A stretch of DNA of 64,000 nt, taken from contig OZ253555.1 in NCBI GenBank assembly GCA_965262725.1, forward strand, positions 1,536,001 to 1,600,000, read 5' to 3'. Numbering within the stretch: the stretch's first letter is position 1; each line of letters begins with the position of its first letter. Below are positions 19,566-61,070 of the stretch, piece after piece. A program made the position numbers and the translations under genes. A model generated the notes under the pieces. The model saw only the letters and a list, made by a program, of their open reading frames with translations. It ran no database searches and had not been told where the DNA came from. Source of the DNA: Dehalococcoidia bacterium. GTDB lineage: Bacteria; Chloroflexota; Dehalococcoidia; UBA2979.

Positions 19566-21052
<1,487 letters not shown>

Positions 21053-21285
21053 AGGGAGTCACGCCGGAACCGAAGGGGCGCACGGTGTACGTGCCCTTAC
21101 CGGCCATCTCCTGTCGACCGGACGTCCATCCACGTGTCTCGCCCGGGTTTCCGGGCGAGGCGGGGACCACCCATTCCCGGGTGGGCGTTCGATACTCATG
21201 GGTCCCGCCCCCCTGCGCGGGGATTCTGCTCGCTATCCAGCTGTTGATGTGCGCCCGGGTAGTGGCATGCCTGCGCACGGGCAAG

Positions 21286-21362
21286 GGGCCATTAGCTCAG
21301 CTGGTTAGAGCGCAGTCCTGATAAGACTGAGGTCCCTGGTTCGAGTCCAGGATGGCCCACCA
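21286..21362 (+). tRNA. tRNA-Ile(GAT)
   Basis: GGGCCAT/ATGGCCC acceptor, anticodon loop CTGATAA, CCA end. Confidence 0.97.
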
Positions 21363-21389
21363 GCCACACCGCCTCGCGCGTGTGGAGTC

Positions 21390-21465
21390 GGGGCCGTAGC
21401 TCAGCTGGTAGAGCGCCGCCTTTGCAAGGCGGATGTCGGGGGTTCGAGTCCCCCCGGCTCCACCA
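21390..21465 (+). tRNA. tRNA-Ala(TGC)
   Basis: GGGGCCG/CGGCTCC acceptor with G3:U70, loop TTTGCAA, CCA end. Confidence 0.97.
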
Positions 21466-21690
21466 TCGCGAGCTACGAGGGCACTACCCACCCTTCATCG
21501 CTGAGTGCGCCGCGTCCTAGCTGGATGCGGCGGGCGTCTGGAGGCCGTCCCTCCGATCCAGCACATTCACAACCGAATACTGCGCAAAGCAGACGAACAT
21601 CGAGAAAGTTCCGGGCACGCGTCCGGGCCCGCTCGTGCCACCGGGAATCGCCCCGGGGCCGGCGGGGATCGAGGCGTGTGCGTGACGAAG

Positions 21691-24633
<2,943 letters not shown>

Positions 24634-24809
24634 CTTCGCCACGCACCGGCGCGATCCCCCCGGGGATGCGCGCCCGGACTCTCTCGGAGTTCGTCGCTCG
24701 CGCAGTATTTGTTGCTGGAGAATCCACGCGCACGGCGCCGCTTGGTGCGGTGCTACACTCACTGGCGTGGACGAGGGCCAGCCGGCCGCCGGCCGGTTGG
24801 CCAGGGCGT

Positions 24810-24884
<75 letters not shown>

Positions 24885-24892
24885 GCCTCTTC

Positions 24893-24922
24893 ACGGGGGC
24901 GGGACACAGGTCCCGCCCCCGT
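24893..24922 (+). terminator. Hairpin after tRNA-fMet (putative terminator)
   Basis: ACGGGGGCGGGAC-ACAG-GTCCCGCCCCCGT is a perfect 13-bp stem with a weak U-tail. Confidence 0.6.
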
Positions 24923-25001
24923 TGTGCGTCTACGGGTGGCGGGGCGCACATGCGGCCCCTGGCCGCTTGCCGGTATGGCCGCCGCCGCGAGATACTGTCA
25001 G

Positions 25002-25120
25002 TCTTGGTGGTTAGAGCGCGACGGCCCCACCCGTTCCCATCCCGAACACGGAAGTGAAACGTCGTAGCGCTGACGATACTCCCCGGGCGACCGGGCGCGG
25101 AAAATAGGCCACCGCCAGGA
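25002..25120 (+). rRNA. rrf: 5S rRNA
   Basis: TCTTGGTGG...CCACCCGTTCCCATCCCGAACACGGAAGTGAA...CCGCCAGGA. Confidence 0.95.
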
Positions 25121-53369: not shown

Positions 53370-55279
53370 GAGCCTGGTGTTTTTGTGGGGCGGTGGGTGC
53401 CTTCTGGAGGCGGGGCATCGTTGCGAGCAGTCACGGAATGCGATCATGTTGGTGATCAGTTCTGTTCGCAGCGAAAGTCTCGCTCATGACACAGGGAGAG
53501 ACCTCCAGGCAGCCCCTTACCTTCTTCAAGAGCACCGCCTACCTCGCTGAGAGGGTCCCCGGGAACTCCATCTGGACCCTCCTTGCCCGCCACGGCGAGC
53601 GCCTCTTCCCCGACGAGATGTTCGCCGACCTCTTCTCCGCTCGCGGCCGCGGGAGCGTTCCGCCACGGGTCGTCGCCACGGTCATGGTGCTGCAGCGTCT
53701 CCACGGCCTGTCCGACCGCGAGGCGGTGGCTGCCTTCGAGTGGGACGCCCGCTGGAAGTTCGCCTGCGGCGGACTCGACTACGACGCGCCGGGCTTCGTG
53801 CACACGGTCCTGGTCTCGATGCGGGCTCGCCTCGCCCGCTCCGAGCGCCCCCGGCGCATCTTCGAGGCCACGCTCGCGGTGGCGCGCGAGGCGAAGCTGC
53901 TCTCTGCTCAGCGTGTGCTGGACTCCACGCCGCTCTACGACGCCGTCGCCACGCAGGACACGGTGACGTTGCTCCGCTCGTCGCTCCGCGGGCTGCTGCG
54001 GGAGGCGGAGAGCCTCGATGCGCCCGGACTCGGGGCCGAGCTGCGGGCGGTGCTGGAGCGCGATGACGACTACCGGGCCGCTGGGAAGCCTCCGTGCGAC
54101 TGGGAGGACCGCGAGGCCGCGCGGGCGCTCATCGACGAGCTGGCGGCCGATGTATCGCGCTGCCTGCGGGTGCTGGAGGGCCGGGAGCTCGACGGGCACG
54201 TCGAGCGGGCGGGCGAGCTCTGTGCGGCCGTGGTGGGGCAGGACCTCGAGCAGGACGACGGCGGGCGCTTCGTGATTGCGCGGCGGGTAGCGAGGGACCG
54301 CATCATCTCGACCGTGGACACCGACGCCCGCCACGGACGCAAGAGCTCCGCGCACGGCTTCGACGGCTACAAGGGCCATCTGGCGGTCGACCCGGAGTCG
54401 GAGCTCATCACCCACACGACGGTGACCGCGGGCAACGTGGCGGACGGGGAGGTTGCGGAGGAGTTGATCACGGACCTGCTGGAGGACGCAGGGGCACACG
54501 ACTTAGCCGCCGACGCGGCTGCGGAGGCGAGCACCGGGACACCGACGGTCTACGGCGATTCGGCCTACGGCTCGGGCGCGTTCCAGGAGGTGCTGGAGCA
54601 GCACGGGGTCGAGTCCCGCTGCCGCACTCAGAGAGCGACCGCGCCGCATCAGCACTTCAGCAAGGAGCGATTCACCATCGACCTGGAGAGGGGCACCGTG
54701 ACCTGCCCCGCGGAGGTGACGGTGCCGATTCGCCGCGCCTCCGACGGCTCGGGAACCGCCTGCTTCCGGGGCGCCTGCAGCCCCTGTCCGCTTCGCGCGC
54801 AGTGCACCACATCGCGCGGGGGACGCACCGTCGCGGTGGGCGTCCACGAGGCCAGTCTCGCGGCCGCCCGGGCACGCCAGGAGACTCCCGGGTGGCTATC
54901 CGGCTACCGCGCGGTCCGCTCGCGAGTCGAACGCAAGGTGGCGCATACGACCCGTCGCAGACACGGGGGCCGCGTCGCCCGTGTCCGGGGCCGTCTCAAG
55001 GTCGACGCCGACCACAATCTGCTCGCCGCCTCCGTCAACCTGGCGCGGTTGGCGGTCCTGGGCCTGCATCACACACCAACCCGGTGGGCGGTCACAGCGC
55101 CCTCGTAGGGGAGACGGAGGCGGGGGCGACTGCGGGAGAGCCTGCGTCCGGGGGTCCCCGGGTCGATGCCGGCCCCGCTCACTCCCCAGCGGCGCAACTC
55201 CCGACCCGCGCCCACCCGACGCTACACTTCCCTCTCACACCGACTGCGGCCGCCGTGACTCGAGTTTGGCACCAGCGTC
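53370..55279 (+). mobile_element. IS1182-family insertion sequence
   Basis: Imperfect terminal IRs GAGCCTGGTG / CACCAGCGTC (8/10), flanked by CTAG direct repeats at 53366-69 and 55280-83. Confidence 0.85.
53486..55108 (+). CDS. IS1182-family transposase
   Basis: DUF772-like N-terminus (GR.S.PP...LQ...GLSDREA), LDST, D.DARHG.K, GYK.H, D..YG, Cys cluster CP...C..CPLR..C and R..VE. Confidence 0.9.
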   Translation: MTQGETSRQPLTFFKSTAYLAERVPGNSIWTLLARHGERLFPDEMFADLFSARGRGSVPPRVVATVMVLQRLHGLSDREAVAAFEWDARWKFACGGLDYDAPGFVHTVLVSMRARLARSERPRRIFEATLAVAREAKLLSAQRVLDSTPLYDAVATQDTVTLLRSSLRGLLREAESLDAPGLGAELRAVLERDDDYRAAGKPPCDWEDREAARALIDELAADVSRCLRVLEGRELDGHVERAGELCAAVVGQDLEQDDGGRFVIARRVARDRIISTVDTDARHGRKSSAHGFDGYKGHLAVDPESELITHTTVTAGNVADGEVAEELITDLLEDAGAHDLAADAAAEASTGTPTVYGDSAYGSGAFQEVLEQHGVESRCRTQRATAPHQHFSKERFTIDLERGTVTCPAEVTVPIRRASDGSGTACFRGACSPCPLRAQCTTSRGGRTVAVGVHEASLAAARARQETPGWLSGYRAVRSRVERKVAHTTRRRHGGRVARVRGRLKVDADHNLLAASVNLARLAVLGLHHTPTRWAVTAPS

Positions 55280-55610
55280 CTAGTGTCCTGAATTGGAAAT
55301 GCGATTGAGATATCCGGTGAGGTTGGTGTGTCCCGAAGTCGAAGGGCGGGTGACGTGATGACGTAACCGGTCTGGAGACATGCTCGTCGTTGCCAGCCGG
55401 TGCGAGTCCGGCACGGGTAACTGTCAGGAGGCCCGTTAGCAGGTCGGCGGCGCGGACGGGAAACGGTCCACGTCGAAGCCCGACGTCAAGAGCCCTATCA
55501 GGGGGAGCAACCAAGCGGTCCGCAGCATCAAGCGAAGCCTGCCTGGGAATGATGCTTACATCTGGCCCCACTTTGATCCTCTGATCTGGCCCCACCCCCG
55601 GGGACCGGGA

Positions 55611-56393
55611 TCAGGTCGTTGGGGCACCTCCTCTCGGGGAGGTCGAGGCCCGGAGCCGGTAGGACTCGGTGCCGGTCTCGATGATATGGGCACGGTAGGT
55701 GAGGCGGTCAACGACGGCCGCGGCGAGACGAGGGTCGGTGAAGATGCGGCCCCACTCGGAGAACGGGGAGTTGGAGGCGACGGCGACCGATGCCCGTTCC
55801 TCGCGCTCGGTCAGGATCTGGAACAGCATTTCGGCACCGCGCGGGTCGAGGTGGACGTACCCGAACTCATCCAGGCAGAGCAGGTCGAGGCGGCCGTAGC
55901 GGGCGACGAGGCGTGAGAGCGCGCGATCATCCGACGCTTCGGCCAGTTCATTCACCAGGGCGGCCGTGGTCATGTACCGCACGCGCAGCCCCAGGTGGCA
56001 GGCGGCCATGCCGAGGCCGATGAGCAGGTGTGACTTCCCGGTGCCGCTGTCACCGAGCAGGACGACGGGCTCGCCCCTTTCGACCCAGTCGCAGCGCTCC
56101 AGCGTGGCGAGCGCCGGCGCGTCGACTGTCGGCGCCGCCTCGAGGTCGAAGTCGGCGAGGTACTTGAAACGCGGGAACCGCGCCTCGACGATACGGCGCT
56201 GACGGCGCCGCTCCTCACGGTCATCGCGTTCGGCTCCCAGCACTTCGGCGAGATAGCCCAGATGGGTGATCCGGTCTCGGACCGCGGCTTCGGCGAGCGG
56301 GAGCGCCTGCTTCCTGACGGTGGGGAGACGGAGCTCGCGGCAGATCGCCTCGATTGTCAGCTCCGCGGCCTGGTCGGTGAGGGGTGCTGTCAT
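55611..56393 (-). CDS. istB: IS21 helper ATPase IstB
   Basis: LRLP, ARFP, GDSGTGKSHL, LDEFGY, SN.PFSEW and DRL. Confidence 0.95.
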   Translation of the reverse strand: MTAPLTDQAAELTIEAICRELRLPTVRKQALPLAEAAVRDRITHLGYLAEVLGAERDDREERRRQRRIVEARFPRFKYLADFDLEAAPTVDAPALATLERCDWVERGEPVVLLGDSGTGKSHLLIGLGMAACHLGLRVRYMTTAALVNELAEASDDRALSRLVARYGRLDLLCLDEFGYVHLDPRGAEMLFQILTEREERASVAVASNSPFSEWGRIFTDPRLAAAVVDRLTYRAHIIETGTESYRLRASTSPRGGAPTT

Positions 56394-56409
56394 CGGGTGC
56401 CTCCTGTGG

Positions 56410-58044
56410 TCAGCGTGCCGTCGACACCGCAGCGGTGACGGCGGTTGTGGTGGTGTGCGACGCGTTCTCGGCAGACCGCGGAGCGCGGGAGCGCCCGCCC
56501 GGCGACGTGCCGGGCCATCGGGAATCACCCGAGAGCAGCGCATCGTAGCCATCGAGGAGCGGGGCAGGTCGGTCGTAGCGCTCCAGGTGCGGTCTCTCGA
56601 CGGCGGCGTCTGGTGGCCTGCGGTCGGCGAGACGGCGCGCCTCGATGGCGACCAGTTCGGGGTTCACCGACTGGATCCTGTTGACCGTCCCGAGCGCGGC
56701 GTGCACCGCCGTGAAGGGAAGATGGCGATGCAGGAGCAGGACCTCGATGTACGCCTGCGTGCCCGCGCGGTCGCCGAGCTTGCGGCGGGCGCGGTCCCAG
56801 AAGCGCTGATGCTCGGCTGTGACGTGTCCCTTCGCACGCGCCTGCTGGAGCGCCACCGAGCCCGGGACCGCCCCGGGCTTGCGCGCGAGCACCTCCAGAT
56901 AGTGGTCGAGCAGCAGGACCTCTGCTCCGGTGCGGGCGCTGCGCTCGTGGTGGGCGACTTCACGCCCCTCGGCCCACACGGTCAGGCTGTTCCCGGACAG
57001 CCGCACGTCCAGCTTCCGGCCTGCATAGGCCGCCGGGACCGAGTAGCGGGAGCTACGCACGGCGATGCGCGCCTTGCGGTCGACCTTCGCGCGCAGCGGG
57101 ATTGACGGGTCGAAGCGCTCCGCCGGAAGCGGACGCAGCGAGGCCTTCTCGTTCTCTCCCATCTCGCCGACGGTGGCGAGGCGGCTCTCGATGTGCCGGG
57201 CGTCGTCGGTGCGGTCCGCCTCCCGCACTCGTTCGTTCAGCTCGCCGAGGGTCGCCACCTTCGGGACCGGCACGAAGTGCCGCCGGCGGAAGCGGCCGAC
57301 CTCGCCCTCCACACCGCCCTTCTCGTGCGCGCCCTCGATGCCGGGCTCACAGAAGAAGCTGTCGAAGCCGTAATGCGAGCGGAGCGCGATGAAGCGCTCG
57401 GTCTGCAGGCGCTCGCGTCCCTGCAGCACGGTGGTGACGGCCGCCGTCAGATTGTCGTAGCGGATGCGCCGCGGCACTCCGCCGAGCCGCTCGAAGGCGA
57501 CCACGTGCCCCTCGAGCAGAGACTCCTGGCCCTCGCCGACGAAGCAGACGTGCGCCGCCCGCCCCGAATGCGAGAGCCGCATCACGAACATCGCCAGCCG
57601 GGTCTCGACGCCCTCCAGCCACACCGTCACCGTGCCGAAGTCGACCTCCGCCTCCTCGCCGGGAGGATGGACCTGCGGGATCGTCACAACCGCGCGCCCG
57701 CCCTGGATCTCGCGACGCAGGCGCGCGACGCAGGCGCGGACCGTGGGCTCGGCCACCGTCGCCCCGTGTTCGTCGACGAGGCGCTCCCAGATGCGCCGGG
57801 CCGTGTGCCGCTGCTTGCGCGGCGCGCTGAGGTCGTCCACGAGCCAGCCCCGGATGACCGAGACGTACGGCCCGAGCTTCGGGGCCACGCGGGTCGCCTG
57901 CTTGCGTTCCGGGGGTATCGCCGACCCAAGAGCCTGCCGCACCGTGCGCCGGTGCACGCCATGCCGGCGTCCCAGCTCATGGATCGACAGCTCCTCCTCC
58001 CTCGCCATCCGTCGGATAGACTCGAACAGCTCCACTCTCGACAC
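56410..58044 (-). CDS. istA: IS21 transposase IstA
   Basis: HTH (HRRTVR.AL), PRKQRHTA.RI, EVDFG, YDN, KG.VEG.V and YSVP. Confidence 0.95.
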   Translation of the reverse strand: MSRVELFESIRRMAREEELSIHELGRRHGVHRRTVRQALGSAIPPERKQATRVAPKLGPYVSVIRGWLVDDLSAPRKQRHTARRIWERLVDEHGATVAEPTVRACVARLRREIQGGRAVVTIPQVHPPGEEAEVDFGTVTVWLEGVETRLAMFVMRLSHSGRAAHVCFVGEGQESLLEGHVVAFERLGGVPRRIRYDNLTAAVTTVLQGRERLQTERFIALRSHYGFDSFFCEPGIEGAHEKGGVEGEVGRFRRRHFVPVPKVATLGELNERVREADRTDDARHIESRLATVGEMGENEKASLRPLPAERFDPSIPLRAKVDRKARIAVRSSRYSVPAAYAGRKLDVRLSGNSLTVWAEGREVAHHERSARTGAEVLLLDHYLEVLARKPGAVPGSVALQQARAKGHVTAEHQRFWDRARRKLGDRAGTQAYIEVLLLHRHLPFTAVHAALGTVNRIQSVNPELVAIEARRLADRRPPDAAVERPHLERYDRPAPLLDGYDALLSGDSRWPGTSPGGRSRAPRSAENASHTTTTAVTAAVSTAR

Positions 58045-58530
58045 ACTCCTCTTCCCTCGCTCCGGGAGTCATGCAGTCACCCGAGCGTAGGTCCTGGATG
58101 GGTCGGGGGTGGGGCCAATTCAAAGGATCAAAACGGCTCCAGGTGGGGCCAATTCAGAGCATCATTCCCACCTGCCGCGTCGTTAACGGATAGTGGAGGA
58201 GCCGAGCCCGGCAATTCAGGGCGAAGGCCATGGACGAGGTGAAGATCCTGAATGCGCGTTGCGCTGCAGCCTCAAGGAACCTCCCGGCGTAAGGGGCGTG
58301 GAACGTTTGGAAGGTAGCGACGGGAACGGGAGAAGCCCTCCCCGGCCCGGCACCCTGCGAGATGGTGTCGGAGCGAGGTGCCCTATAACCGGTCAAAGCC
58401 GGGAAGTGGGCAGCTAGCCGGAAGGGTGACGGAGGGGGTCGTAGTACCGCTTGAGCCGGACGGACAACACAACCGCCGGTGATGGGAAGGACCCCTGCTT
58501 TGCTCACGCGTGGGGAGTAGGGATGAATCG

Positions 58531-60730
58531 GTGAGTGCCCAAGCGGCTAACTCCATCCAAGACAAGGTCCGAACACTACAACGCACGCTTTACCGGGCGG
58601 CCAAGGCCGACCCCAATAGACGCTTTCATGCGCTCTACGACAAGGTTTATCGCAGAGACATTCTGGAGCGCGCGTGGGAGCAGGTGCGTCGCAATCGCGG
58701 CGCAGCCGGTATCGACGGCGTCACGCTCGCCGAGGTCGAGCGCTACGGCGTGGAGCGCCTGCTGGATGAACTGGCCACGGAACTGAAGGAGGGAAGATAC
58801 CGGGTGCAGCCGAGCCGCCGGGTCTGGATACCCAAGCCCGGTCGGTCGGAAGAGCGCCCGCTCTCGATTCCTTCGGTCCGCGACCGCATCGTGCAGGCGT
58901 CGCTGAAGCTCGTGACGGAGCCGGTCTTCGAGGCCGACTTCCTGCCATGCAGCTTCGGCTTCCGCCCGAAGCGTTCGGCCCATGACGCCCTGCAGGTCCT
59001 CATTGACGAGGCGTGGCGGGGCAGGCGGTGGGTAGTGGAGACGGACATCGCCTCGTGTTTCGAGTCGATACCGCGTGCGTCCGGAAGTCGAAGGGGTGGT
59101 GACGTGATGACGTGACCGGTCCGGAGACATGCTCGTTGCTGCCAGCCGGTGAGAGTCCGGCACGGGTAACTGTCAGGAGGCCCGTTAGCAGGTCGGCGGC
59201 GTGGACGGGAAACGGTCTGCGTCGAAGCCCGACGTCAAGAGCCCTATGAGGGGGAGCAAACGTGCGGTCCGCAGCATGACGCGAAGTCTGCCGCGCCGTG
59301 AGACTCGCCTGTCTATTGACAGGACCAAGGAGGAGCCGAGCCCGGGTGGTCAGGGCGAAGGCCATGGACGAGGTGAAGATCCTGGAATGCAGCCTCAAGA
59401 AACCTCCCGGCGTATGGGACGTGGAACGTACGGAAGGTAGCGACGGGAACCGGAGAAGCCCTCCCCGGCCCGGCACCCTGTGAGAGGGCGTCGGAGCGAG
59501 GCGTCCTATAACCGGTCAGAGCCGGGAAGTGGACAGCCAGCCGGAAGGGTGGCGGAGGGGGTCGTAGTACCGCTGGAGCCGGACGGACAACATAACCGCC
59601 GGTGATGGGAAGGACCCCTACTTTGTCCGTGCATGTTGCTGGGGGTGTGGACTGGTGAGTGCCCCTCGGGGCTAGCAACCACTTGGTAGGGTTCGAGGCT
59701 CTCCGCACATGCTGTACCGGCTGGCCAAGGCACGACCCACGTTGTGGGGAGCGCTGCATGCCATCTGGTGAAGGGCATCGGTGAGCCGGATGAGGGAGAA
59801 CCTCACGTCCGGTTCGATGTGGCAGGGGCTGGAGACGGACGCTGCTATGGCCGTGGAGTTGGGCACCACCGGGAAACCGGCTTGGAACTGATGCGCCACC
59901 GCCTACGGCTCGCACCGCGCCAGCCCCTGACCCTACACGACCGTCTGATGACGGCCGTCGAGGAACGGATATGCGACCGCAATCTCCTGAAGCTGGTACG
60001 GGCGATGCTGCGTGCCGGTGTGATGGAGTCGGGGGTCGTGCAGCACAGCGCGACGGGTACGCCGCAGGGCGGGGTGATGTCCCCGCTGCTGGCCAATGTC
60101 TACCTGCACCGGTTGGACCGGGACTGGGAGGCGAAGGGTGATGGCGTGCTGGTGCGCTATGCGGATGACCTCGTGGTGCTCTGCCGGAGCCGGGAGGAAG
60201 CGGAGCGGGCGTTGGCCCTGCTGCGTGACCTGCTGGGTGAGCTCGGACTGGAGCTCAAGGCGGAGAAGACGCGCATCGTGCACCTGCGGGAGGGAGGCGA
60301 GGGGCTGGAGTTCCTCGGCTTCGAGCATCGCTGGGTACGTGCGAAGCGCAACAAGAATATCCAGTTCCTCGCACGCTGGCCCTCACGGCGAGCGATGCAG
60401 CGGGCGCGGGACCGCATCCGTGAAATCACGGCGCGGTTGCGTCTGCTGCTGAGTCCCCGGCAGGTCGTGGAGGAAGTCAATCGCTACCTCCGCGGCTGGA
60501 TGAGCTACTTCCGCTACGGCAACTCGGCGAGGGCGTTCGACGTCCTGCACTGGTTTGCCATGTGGAGACTCAAACTCTGGCTGGGGAAGCGGTTGCGTTG
60601 GCGGCGACGCCATCGCGGGCACCCGTTTCCCGTCGCCGACCGTCTGGGGCTCATCTCGCTAGCTGGACAGCGCGTCGTGGCACCACGGCCATATCGACCG
60701 TGGCGGGGCACCCCGCATGCCGCCCGGTGA
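58531..60730 (+). CDS. ltrA: Group II intron reverse transcriptase/maturase, join(58531..59074,59937..60730), 445 aa, no En domain
   Basis: GAAGIDG, IPKP...RPL.IP..RDRIVQ, SFGFRP, DI..CF..IPH across the junction, GTPQGG..SPLL.N.YL, YADD, FLGF and X-domain GW..YF. Confidence 0.92.
59075..59936 (+). ncRNA. Inner ORF-less group II intron (862 nt) inserted in the RT gene
   Basis: 5' GTGCG, colinear and highly similar to the outer intron RNA, domain V at 59783-815, 3' CCCTGACCCTAC. Removal gives ATA CCG C|AC GAC CGT (IPHDR) in frame. Confidence 0.93.
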
Positions 60731-61070
60731 AGGGCATCGGTGAGCCGGATGAGGGAAAACCTCACGTCCGGTTCGAGGCGGCAGGGGCTGGAGACGGACG
60801 ATGCTACGGCTGTGGAGATGGGCGCCACCGGGAAACCGGCCTGGCAATATGCGCCACCGCCTACGGCTCGCACCGCGCCAGCCCCTGACCCTACTCAAGG
60901 ATCTGGTCCGCGGACTTGTGCCAGATGAAGCGCCTCCGGTGCTCGTTTCCAGTTGCGACCCAAGCCTCCACTGAGCGGACCAGGCCTGCGAGGCTCGGTG
61001 CGATTGTTTTCAGCATTTGCAACTCGGGACACTAGGAGGCCTCCCGCGGTCGGCCGGCCCGGAAACCAGA

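Follow-up and report, generated by a model that had tools for sequence, protein, structure and literature searches.

Can a group II intron settle within the reverse transcriptase (RT) gene of a related intron, and what would follow for both elements if the same enzyme served them? This question is raised by a 64,000-nt stretch of a Dehalococcoidia genome (contig OZ253555.1, positions 1,536,001 to 1,600,000), hereafter called the window, in which an RT/maturase gene carried by one group II intron (the outer intron) is interrupted by a second group II intron of 862 nt that has no open reading frame (ORF). The latter is called the inner intron or the satellite. Coordinates refer to the window unless they are prefixed with G000:C1, which denotes the contig of the host genome G000 (a single contig of 3.67 Mb with 70.6% G+C). 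Introns of the outer type seen in the window are named family A, a related outer type is named family B, and a third type from another Rfam class is named family C. We propose that the locus is a group II twintron made by site-specific retrohoming of a retargeted satellite, the splicing of which is coupled to its helper enzyme. This explanation as a whole is considered probable. Its structural and homing part, taken alone, is close to certain, and the part concerning the helper and the coupling is put forward tentatively, with doubt slightly prevailing.

Position of the inner intron within the RT gene

The inner intron lies at 59075-59936 and divides a His codon of the RT gene as C/AC. The 5′ exon ends with ...GATACCGC at 59074 and the intron begins with GTGCG at 59075; its 3′ end is ...CCCTAC at 59936, and the 3′ exon begins with ACGACCGT at 59937. 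As read along the strand, the two junctions are ...TTCGAGTCGATACCGC / GTGCGTCCGG...(862 nt)...CCCTGACCCTAC / ACGACCGTCTG... The RT motifs upstream of the insert reach ...VVETDIASCFESIP (exon 1 translation ...DIASCFESIP), and the frame resumes in exon 2 with HDRLMTAVEE...VRYADDLVV... up to the stop codon at 60728-60730. The unspliced frame (ORF 58510..59115, with GTG codons at 58510 and 58531) runs for 13 codons into the insert and is closed by the stop at 59113-59115, while splicing in silico yields 445 aa from the GTG at 58531 with no internal stop. An earlier note on this DNA had described an 862-nt intron splitting a His codon in a conserved RT block, an unspliced stop at 59115 and a spliced product that is a complete 445-aa RT/maturase with YADD, and each of these statements agrees with the present analysis. 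The same note took 58531-60730 as the twintron; this span is the RT gene only, and the outer intron extends from 55326 to 60894.

Uninterrupted homologues of the RT are found in G003, a genome of the same genus as the host (87% amino acid identity), and in G008, from another genus of the same family (86%). Both are colinear with the spliced RT across the junction, where they read ...CFESIPHDRLM and ...CFESISHDRLM, respectively, and the corresponding empty-site DNA is TTCGAGTCGATTCCGC/ACGACC in G003 and ...GATATCTC/ACGACC in G008. Since these homologues are uninterrupted at the junction, the intron boundaries are fixed independently, and by this comparison the 862 nt is a clean insertion. It is also far beyond chance, because the same 862 nt is present 24 times at 100% identity in the genome. 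A 328-aa in-frame ORF (59744-60730) was considered as a separate gene and rejected, as it is a read-through from intron sequence. An assembly artefact was likewise rejected in view of the copies with unique flanks, the target-site logic and the nested insertions.

The interrupted gene encodes a typical RT/maturase with YADD and an X/maturase domain, located in domain IV (DIV) of the outer intron. The Pfam profile RVT_1 is cut between positions 83 and 84 (halves 1-83 and 84-204) and is followed by GIIM. The NCBIfam model TIGR04416 is cut at 137/139 of its 353 positions, its halves covering 2-137 and 139-352 and scoring 172.4 + 217.5 = 389.9 bits against a cut-off of 300. The closest solved structures are the group II intron RTs 7uim, 6ar1 and 6me0. 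No HNH/endonuclease (En) domain was found in the RT by Pfam and NCBIfam scans, and the protein ends ~40 aa past GIIM; En-less group II RTs are a known subset, and the absence of this domain is compatible with membership. With the frame closed by the insert within the RT domain, synthesis of a full-length RT of family A or B would require prior splicing of the inner intron. A search of the host genome with the spliced RT (tblastn) gave 15 high-scoring segments that end at the junction and 15 that start there, and no A/B-type RT that spans it; the 15 junction-spanning segments were at most 40% identical and all belonged to family C. Thus, the claim of the earlier note that RT production depends on splicing of the satellite holds for families A and B.

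Ribozyme anatomy of the inner intron

The inner intron gives a match to the Rfam model group-II-D1D4-4 at 59143-59279, covering the full model (1-138) with 102.8 bits, while the gathering score is 49. Domain V (DV) was placed at ~59782-59815 by alignment to RF00029. Domain VI (DVI) forms a long hairpin, the base of which, GGCAGGGGCUGG, pairs with CCAGCCCCUG[A]CC, and the A at 59930, at a distance of 7 nt from the 3′ end, is bulged. The segment 59625-59740 is a remnant of the DIVa subdomain and of the first ~30 ORF codons, including the conserved GGTGAGTGCCC start region; the remainder of the ORF is deleted, and domains I to VI are retained.

The fold was derived as an RNAalifold consensus of the inner intron and eight relatives (family A, family B, G003, two from G008, and one each from the genomes G018, G098 and G099). 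Over the 5′ 550 nt it contains 146 pairs; in 28 of these both partners have changed, and non-standard combinations occupy 22 of 1,314 cells. For the 3′-terminal 200 nt, the alignment comprised the inner intron, families A and B, G003, G099 and G098; it gave 64 pairs, nine of them changed on both sides, with non-standard combinations in 10 of 384 cells. With a GUGYG 5′ end, a D1D4 core, DV and DVI with a bulged A, and exon-binding sites (EBS) matched by intron-binding sites (IBS) in the exon, the inner element is by its sequence and predicted fold a complete ORF-less group II intron. It is classified here by its Rfam subfamily, D1D4-4, a name for which no literature was found.

Target recognition and the solo sites

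The inner and outer introns are 86-90% identical, and their differences are concentrated in two exon-pairing loops. In the loop of a GCCC-N9-GGGC stem, the inner intron has GUGGU, which pairs with ACCGC, the last five exon bases, and the outer intron has CAAUU, which pairs with its own GGUUG. In the second loop, GACUCG of the inner intron pairs with CGAGUC at −14 to −9, and CGGAUA of the outer intron with UAUCCG in its own exon. Among nine relatives, the two loops vary strongly in an otherwise conserved frame. We conclude that the satellite is an 862-nt deletion derivative, sister to the outer intron, which lost the RT ORF and kept the DIVa/start-codon region, and that its EBS1 (GUGGU) and EBS2 (GACUCG) came to pair with CGAGUC-N3-ACCGC. 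This sequence encodes ...FESIP/H, which directly follows the block with the first catalytic Asp of the RT. As protein function holds the target DNA constant, every A/B RT gene is a target, and as the insert lies on the sense strand inside the ORF encoded by DIV, it leaves the core of the outer ribozyme intact.

The EBS were deduced at the RT site, where 11 of 11 EBS/IBS pairs form with the inner intron, and then tried on the 12 sites at which it stands alone (solo sites), with six IBS2 spacings allowed; 300,000 random positions scored identically served as the baseline. At least 10 of the 11 pairs are formed at 8 of the 12 solo sites against 0.8% of random positions, and at least nine pairs at 11 of 12 against 5.5%, the remaining site giving 8 of 11. 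In addition, the +1 exon base is A in 7 of the 12, while the frequency of this base is 0.147 (binomial 0.0006). Inner-intron copies at unrelated sites without a matching IBS, which the earlier note had named as grounds for giving up its reading, were looked for, and the solo sites instead showed EBS/IBS pairing. The proposal that an ORF-less group II intron homes into a conserved RT motif is thus borne out by the EBS-matched solo copies and by occupancy of all 15 RT sites.

The solo copies with a described host context are at G000:C1 537614, 1018206, 317969, 1853597, 1822597, 1302815 and 1524130. On the sense strand they are found in genes for an RNase_T exonuclease, an ABC-2 permease, a cadherin-domain protein and a family-C RT, and one lies ~20 nt upstream of a NAD kinase start.

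The homing sites of the outer intron are provided by an IS630-family element and its 188-bp miniature inverted-repeat transposable element (MITE), with the intron antisense to the IS630 transposase. Twelve of 26 such sites are occupied and 14 are vacant; of 13 vacant sites inspected, 11 have the same IBS1/IBS2 as the occupied ones. A possible reason is that the vacant MITE copies arose more recently. An IS630-family element is the target of the class D intron RmInt1 as well.

Copies in the genome and mode of spread

About 57 group II intron copies of four kinds make up ~2.2% of the host genome. The inner intron has 28 5′ ends, of which 15 are at the RT site (12 in family A and 3 in family B), one is the second member of a tandem and 12 are solo; 24 copies are complete and 100% identical, and four are broken by other insertions. 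In all 12 copies of family A, the same codon is split by the inner intron. Six of these copies are uninterrupted twintrons of 2,936 nt, and five others, including that of the window, contain further insertions. One A copy (G000:C1:548200-552400) has two complete inner introns head to tail at the RT site, with Rfam cores at local positions 1369-1505 and 2231-2367. The pair is consistent with a second copy having inserted where exon and intron meet, as IBS1 and IBS2 are kept there. The three copies of family B, 75-82% identical to A, contain an inner intron of the same sequence in the corresponding codon, and further insertions are present in each of them. The identification of the locus as a twintron is based on the intact 2,936-nt copies together with the uninterrupted RT homologues, as the outer copy of the window is itself broken by an element of the IS21 family of insertion sequences (IS). 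Neither the RT-site twintron nor the 862-nt form was found in 114 different relative genomes (40 relatives and 98 genomes of the order), many of which are fragmented assemblies with poorly assembled repeats. Scans of metagenomes gave 0 matches to the 5′ junction and 0 to the inner EBS2 segment.

Complete occupancy could also have arisen by composite mobility: the satellite would have entered family A once, the 2,936-nt twintron would then have spread as a unit, and its presence in 12 of 12 copies would be co-inheritance. DIV tolerates insertions, and the inner intron is in the DIV ORF, outside the outer core, so that an unspliced composite could reverse-splice; this possibility has been raised for the twintrons of Thermosynechococcus elongatus as well (PMC2882425). 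Of the six whole twintrons, four have the same 2,936-nt sequence and the other two deviate from it at 1-2 positions, and the RT site is filled in 15 of 15 cases against 12 of 26 for the outer-intron site (Fisher p = 0.0004, for copies that are not independent). However, since the inner intron is identical in families that are only 75-82% identical, it entered A and B independently; the tandem pair requires a second insertion at the same site; and the 12 solo copies show the inner intron moving alone. Variant positions (three in the outer introns and none in the inner introns residing in A, where ~1 would be expected) are too few to decide. The family-B copies and the tandem prove that at least some insertions were separate. 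For the A copies, spread of the twintron as a unit is held to be the less likely course, though it deserves to be weighed, and retrohoming of the satellite is preferred.

Nesting does not end at two levels. At G000:C1:732400-737600 a family-C intron is found within an inner intron within the RT gene of a family-B intron. The nested family-C copy (D1D4-6, with an intact frame of 500 codons) occupies the DV loop, between nt 722 and 723 of the inner intron. A-type introns of G008 are likewise divided at this DV position, at three or more loci, and a C-type RT stands between the two parts. Domain V of this intron lineage may therefore be a homing site of family C.

Splicing and activity

That the inner intron splices in vivo is inferred because the ribozyme is intact, the copies are identical, a tandem insertion exists and solo copies stand on the sense strand. 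Recent mobility is likewise suggested by the identity of the copies, and activity after the site had been filled by the tandem insertion. Read data were examined for spliced products. In the DNA-labelled run X7, from another study, two contigs join exactly across the 862 nt, the shorter side being 39 nt with 90% likeness; we interpret this joint as DNA of a related population in which the site is empty, and not as splicing. No joint skipping the 862 nt was found in X1, the best-matching DNA run.

Several observations weigh against the proposed reading or limit its support and are given here together. In the RNA-labelled runs X19 and X20, contigs of 263 nt and 179 nt are 100% identical to the intron and both fall inside it; these runs otherwise contain DV-like pieces of other sequences, the exons are uncovered and there is no spliced junction, so that these reads are neutral as to splicing and habitat. 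The DV/DVI match of the inner intron to Intron_gpII (RF00029; 59781-59936) reaches 37.5 bits, short of the gathering score of 40 owing to an ~80-nt insert in DVI; the match of the outer copy is given in Table 1. Two solo copies stand antisense, in a phosphotriesterase-family gene and a HisKA/HAMP histidine-kinase gene, and they probably inactivate both genes. Selection on the interrupted RT genes since the invasion is unmeasurable, the copies being too alike. With regard to the helper, family C has at least seven uninterrupted copies that are at least 99.4% identical and could supply an alternative enzyme, and no A/B-type RT was found in G098 or G099, genomes with ORF-less relatives of these introns, where the best match is 42-43% identical.

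One reading of such observations is a dead end, in which splicing in vivo is poor, a sweep of the satellite knocked out every A/B RT, and the present copies are recent fossils. Lost RT supply would fit the 14 vacant outer sites, as 11 of the 13 inspected keep the same IBS1/IBS2, and many copies have been disrupted by insertions, among them IS21 (6 of 12 in A, 3 of 3 in B and 4 of 28 inner introns). The RNA contigs without a spliced junction point the same way, although weakly at such minimal cover. On the other hand, the tandem insertion means that an active ribonucleoprotein existed after the site was already filled, the inner ribozyme has no lesion (24 identical copies, conserved fold), and at the sense-strand solo copies in host genes and ~20 nt upstream of NAD kinase splicing would preserve function. 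We thus consider a dead end quite unlikely and retain an inner intron that probably splices.

Origin of the satellite and its relatives

A maximum likelihood tree of the 5′ 550 nt of the ribozymes places the inner intron next to family A as its sister (support 85/87), in a clade with G003 and G008. The satellite therefore has its origin in the lineage that it now invades. It is not a simple internal deletion of the present outer copies; this origin was rejected in view of the 86-90% identity, the different EBS loops and an extra hairpin. Family B groups with G018 and with ORF-less introns of 911 nt in G098 and G099. These B-clade introns are 73% identical to the inner intron and contain a remnant of the RT N-terminus, with two look-alike copies in G098, and they result from a separate loss of the ORF.

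Family C is 1,930 nt in length, belongs to the Rfam subfamily D1D4-6 and encodes an RT of 494 aa that is 37-46% identical to the A RT. Besides its uninterrupted copies (G000:C1:1849771-1851700 and six other full ones), three are broken near the ORF start and two are diverged. A Pfam GIIM scan of the host genome passed over the main family-C copies.

The putative helper enzyme and its possible coupling to the satellite

The inner intron most likely uses the A/B RT as maturase and reverse transcriptase, as may be concluded from the kinship of the RNAs and the retained A-like DIVa. If the same RT serves the inner intron, RT supply and splicing of the satellite would be coupled. Alternatively, there may be no such dependence, and the inner intron would splice by itself or use the family-C RT, which would leave its splicing and the RT of its own hosts uncoupled. 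Family C alone has uninterrupted group II RT genes in this genome, and the number and near identity of its full copies indicate recent activity. Moreover, ORF-less relatives persist in G098 and G099 without an A/B-type RT. But family C has a ribozyme of another class (D1D4-6 against D1D4-4) and a distant RT, while the inner intron is sister to A and retains an A-like DIVa; group II RTs normally serve their own or close introns, and the shared RTs of T. elongatus serve one lineage (PMC2882425). Independence from the A/B RT is accordingly thought fairly improbable, and the A/B RT is kept as the most likely helper.

A stronger form of the coupling can be formulated, in which all helper RT genes are held hostage. 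The RT would need splicing of the satellite, efficient splicing would need the RT, and the resulting all-or-none loop would throttle both elements. This proposal is speculative, and we rate its chances as low. If it were true, the loop would explain why 14 outer homing sites are vacant and the RT site is saturated, and the system would be a natural hyperparasitic intron that regulates a family of retroelements. The sole hint that coupling limits mobility is the number of vacant outer sites. Since the target of the satellite is a catalytic motif constrained by protein function, the helper could not easily escape by mutation. With a catalytic target, full occupancy and no evident start-codon bypass, the link between splicing and helper is therefore directly testable, and the six uninterrupted twintrons, four of them identical, offer material for this.

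Comparison with known twintrons

The present case is a real and well-defined twintron, a satellite homing into the RT gene of its relatives, and it is of a kind already known. The earlier note had granted that the concept was not new, and a close match is found in T. elongatus, where F3 introns stand within F1 introns as the twintrons TeI3a-e inside TeI4a-e (Mohr, Ghanem and Lambowitz, 2010; PMC2882425, as for all statements on this organism). There, seven identical ORF-less F3 introns are known, five of them at one site in the F1 RT ORF, other families home into an IS, and ORF-less introns derived from one deletion share RTs. Common to both systems are identical ORF-less derivatives of a resident lineage that were retargeted through their EBS to a conserved site of an RT ORF, family members that home into an insertion sequence, and the question of composite or separate mobility; the introns make up ~1.3% of the T. 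elongatus genome (PMC2882425) and ~2.2% here. The systems differ in that the T. elongatus site lies between two close start codons, so that the second ATG allows RT synthesis from unspliced RNA, whereas here it is inside the catalytic RT domain (RVT_1 83/84) and no bypass is evident. Two introns of T. elongatus keep continuous ORFs (PMC2882425), while 15 of 15 related RT genes are filled here, and activity was established there by experiment (PMC2882425) but is presumed here from the sequence. The present host belongs to another phylum, Chloroflexota (class Dehalococcoidia), and the intron class may differ too.

Nested group II introns of Methanosarcina acetivorans (Dai and Zimmerly, 2003) are described in the review PMC4424553. 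As here, ORF-less and RT-encoding introns home site-specifically into related introns or their ORFs at several levels; that system is archaeal and is reported to reach up to five levels against three in the present nest, and insertions are balanced there by recombinational deletion. The twintron of Trichodesmium erythraeum (Pfreundt and Hess, 2015; PMC4649490) is also bacterial and has ORF-less inner introns that must be removed before correct expression is possible. Its sequential splicing was shown in vivo, and it interrupts a conserved host protein gene, the expression of which is the subject of that study, whereas here the interrupted gene is the RT of the outer intron itself. In the plastid of Porphyridium purpureum (Perrineau et al., 2015; PMC4476101), an inner intron of the same family occupies one site in DIV within the coding region of the intron-encoded protein (IEP) of two outer introns and also stands solo. 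It is organellar, and the intact IEP there is that of the inner intron, the outer introns having only IEP remnants, which is the reverse of the present case.

No report of group II introns or twintrons in Chloroflexi or Dehalococcoidia was found in the literature. What distinguishes the system is its complete occupancy, its catalytic-motif target, the tandem insertion and the three-level nest, and with it a second bacterial example, independent of T. elongatus, becomes available. Spliceosomal introns and non-LTR retroelements are presumed to descend from group II introns. The multiplication of introns and the reliance of ORF-less copies on a shared enzyme bear on this ancestry.

The outer intron and other mobile elements in the window

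The outer intron begins with GTGTG, ends with CCCTAC and comprises 2,074 nt without its inserts. The features of the locus are listed in Table 1. A second D1D4-4 core in the window belongs to the outer intron, as judged from repeats and Rfam, and the 5′ part of the intron that contains it is 100% identical to the 11 other A copies. The intron was inserted 46 nt inside the end of the MITE, which is derived from the IS630 family (transposase DDE_3). Its domain I is broken just upstream of EBS2 by an IS21-family element of 2,627 bp, with an IstB_IS21 match of 205.7 bits, inverted repeats, a 6-bp target duplication and an ORF in the IstA position that matches the Mu-transposase C domain. Because this element splits domain I, the outer ribozyme in the window is almost certainly dead. 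The RT gene and inner intron of the window are identical to those of the intact copies.

Table 1. Coordinates of the twintron locus and its flanks in the window
Feature	Position	Strand	Remark
Outer 5′ exon: left end of MITE, terminal inverted repeat (TIR) CTAGTGTCC..., IBS2 TATCCG, IBS1 GGTTG	55280..55325	+	
Outer intron, 5′ part of domain I (DI), GTGTG start	55326..55543	+	Rfam D1D4-4 55394-55530, 95.3 bits
IS21 element; IstB 55611-56552, IstA 56410-58044	55544..58170	-	
Target duplication CCTGCC	55538-55543 and 58171-58176		Flanks IS21
Outer intron, rest of DI to DIII and DIVa; EBS2 CGGATA, EBS1 loop GGCAATTCA	58171..58530	+	
RT exon 1, GTG start to first base of His codon	58531..59074	+	
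Inner IBS2 CGAGTC and IBS1 ACCGC	last 14 nt of RT exon 1	+	
Inner intron; EBS2 GACTCG 59302-59307, EBS1 GTGGT 59346-59350	59075..59936	+	
RT exon 2, YADD, X/maturase, stop	59937..60730	+	
Outer intron, closing part of DIV, DV ~60742-60775, DVI	60731..60894	+	Intron_gpII 60740-60807, 41.5 bits
Outer 3′ exon: MITE remainder to right TIR ...GGACACTAG	60895..61035	+	

The stretch around the outer intron is a pile-up of mobile elements, and a 540-aa DDE transposase (DDE_Tnp_1_6 / DUF772; 53486-55108) lies directly upstream of the MITE. The IS21 element has ~15 near-identical copies in the genome, that of the window and ~14 elsewhere. Six of them are inside group II introns (A, B or inner) at different positions, which is far above the share of the genome taken up by introns (binomial 5e-7); this excess may reflect tolerated landing sites or a target preference. 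Elsewhere in the window, an rRNA operon (19566-25120) contains three tRNAs, two in the 16S-23S spacer and one (24810-24881) in the 23S-5S spacer.

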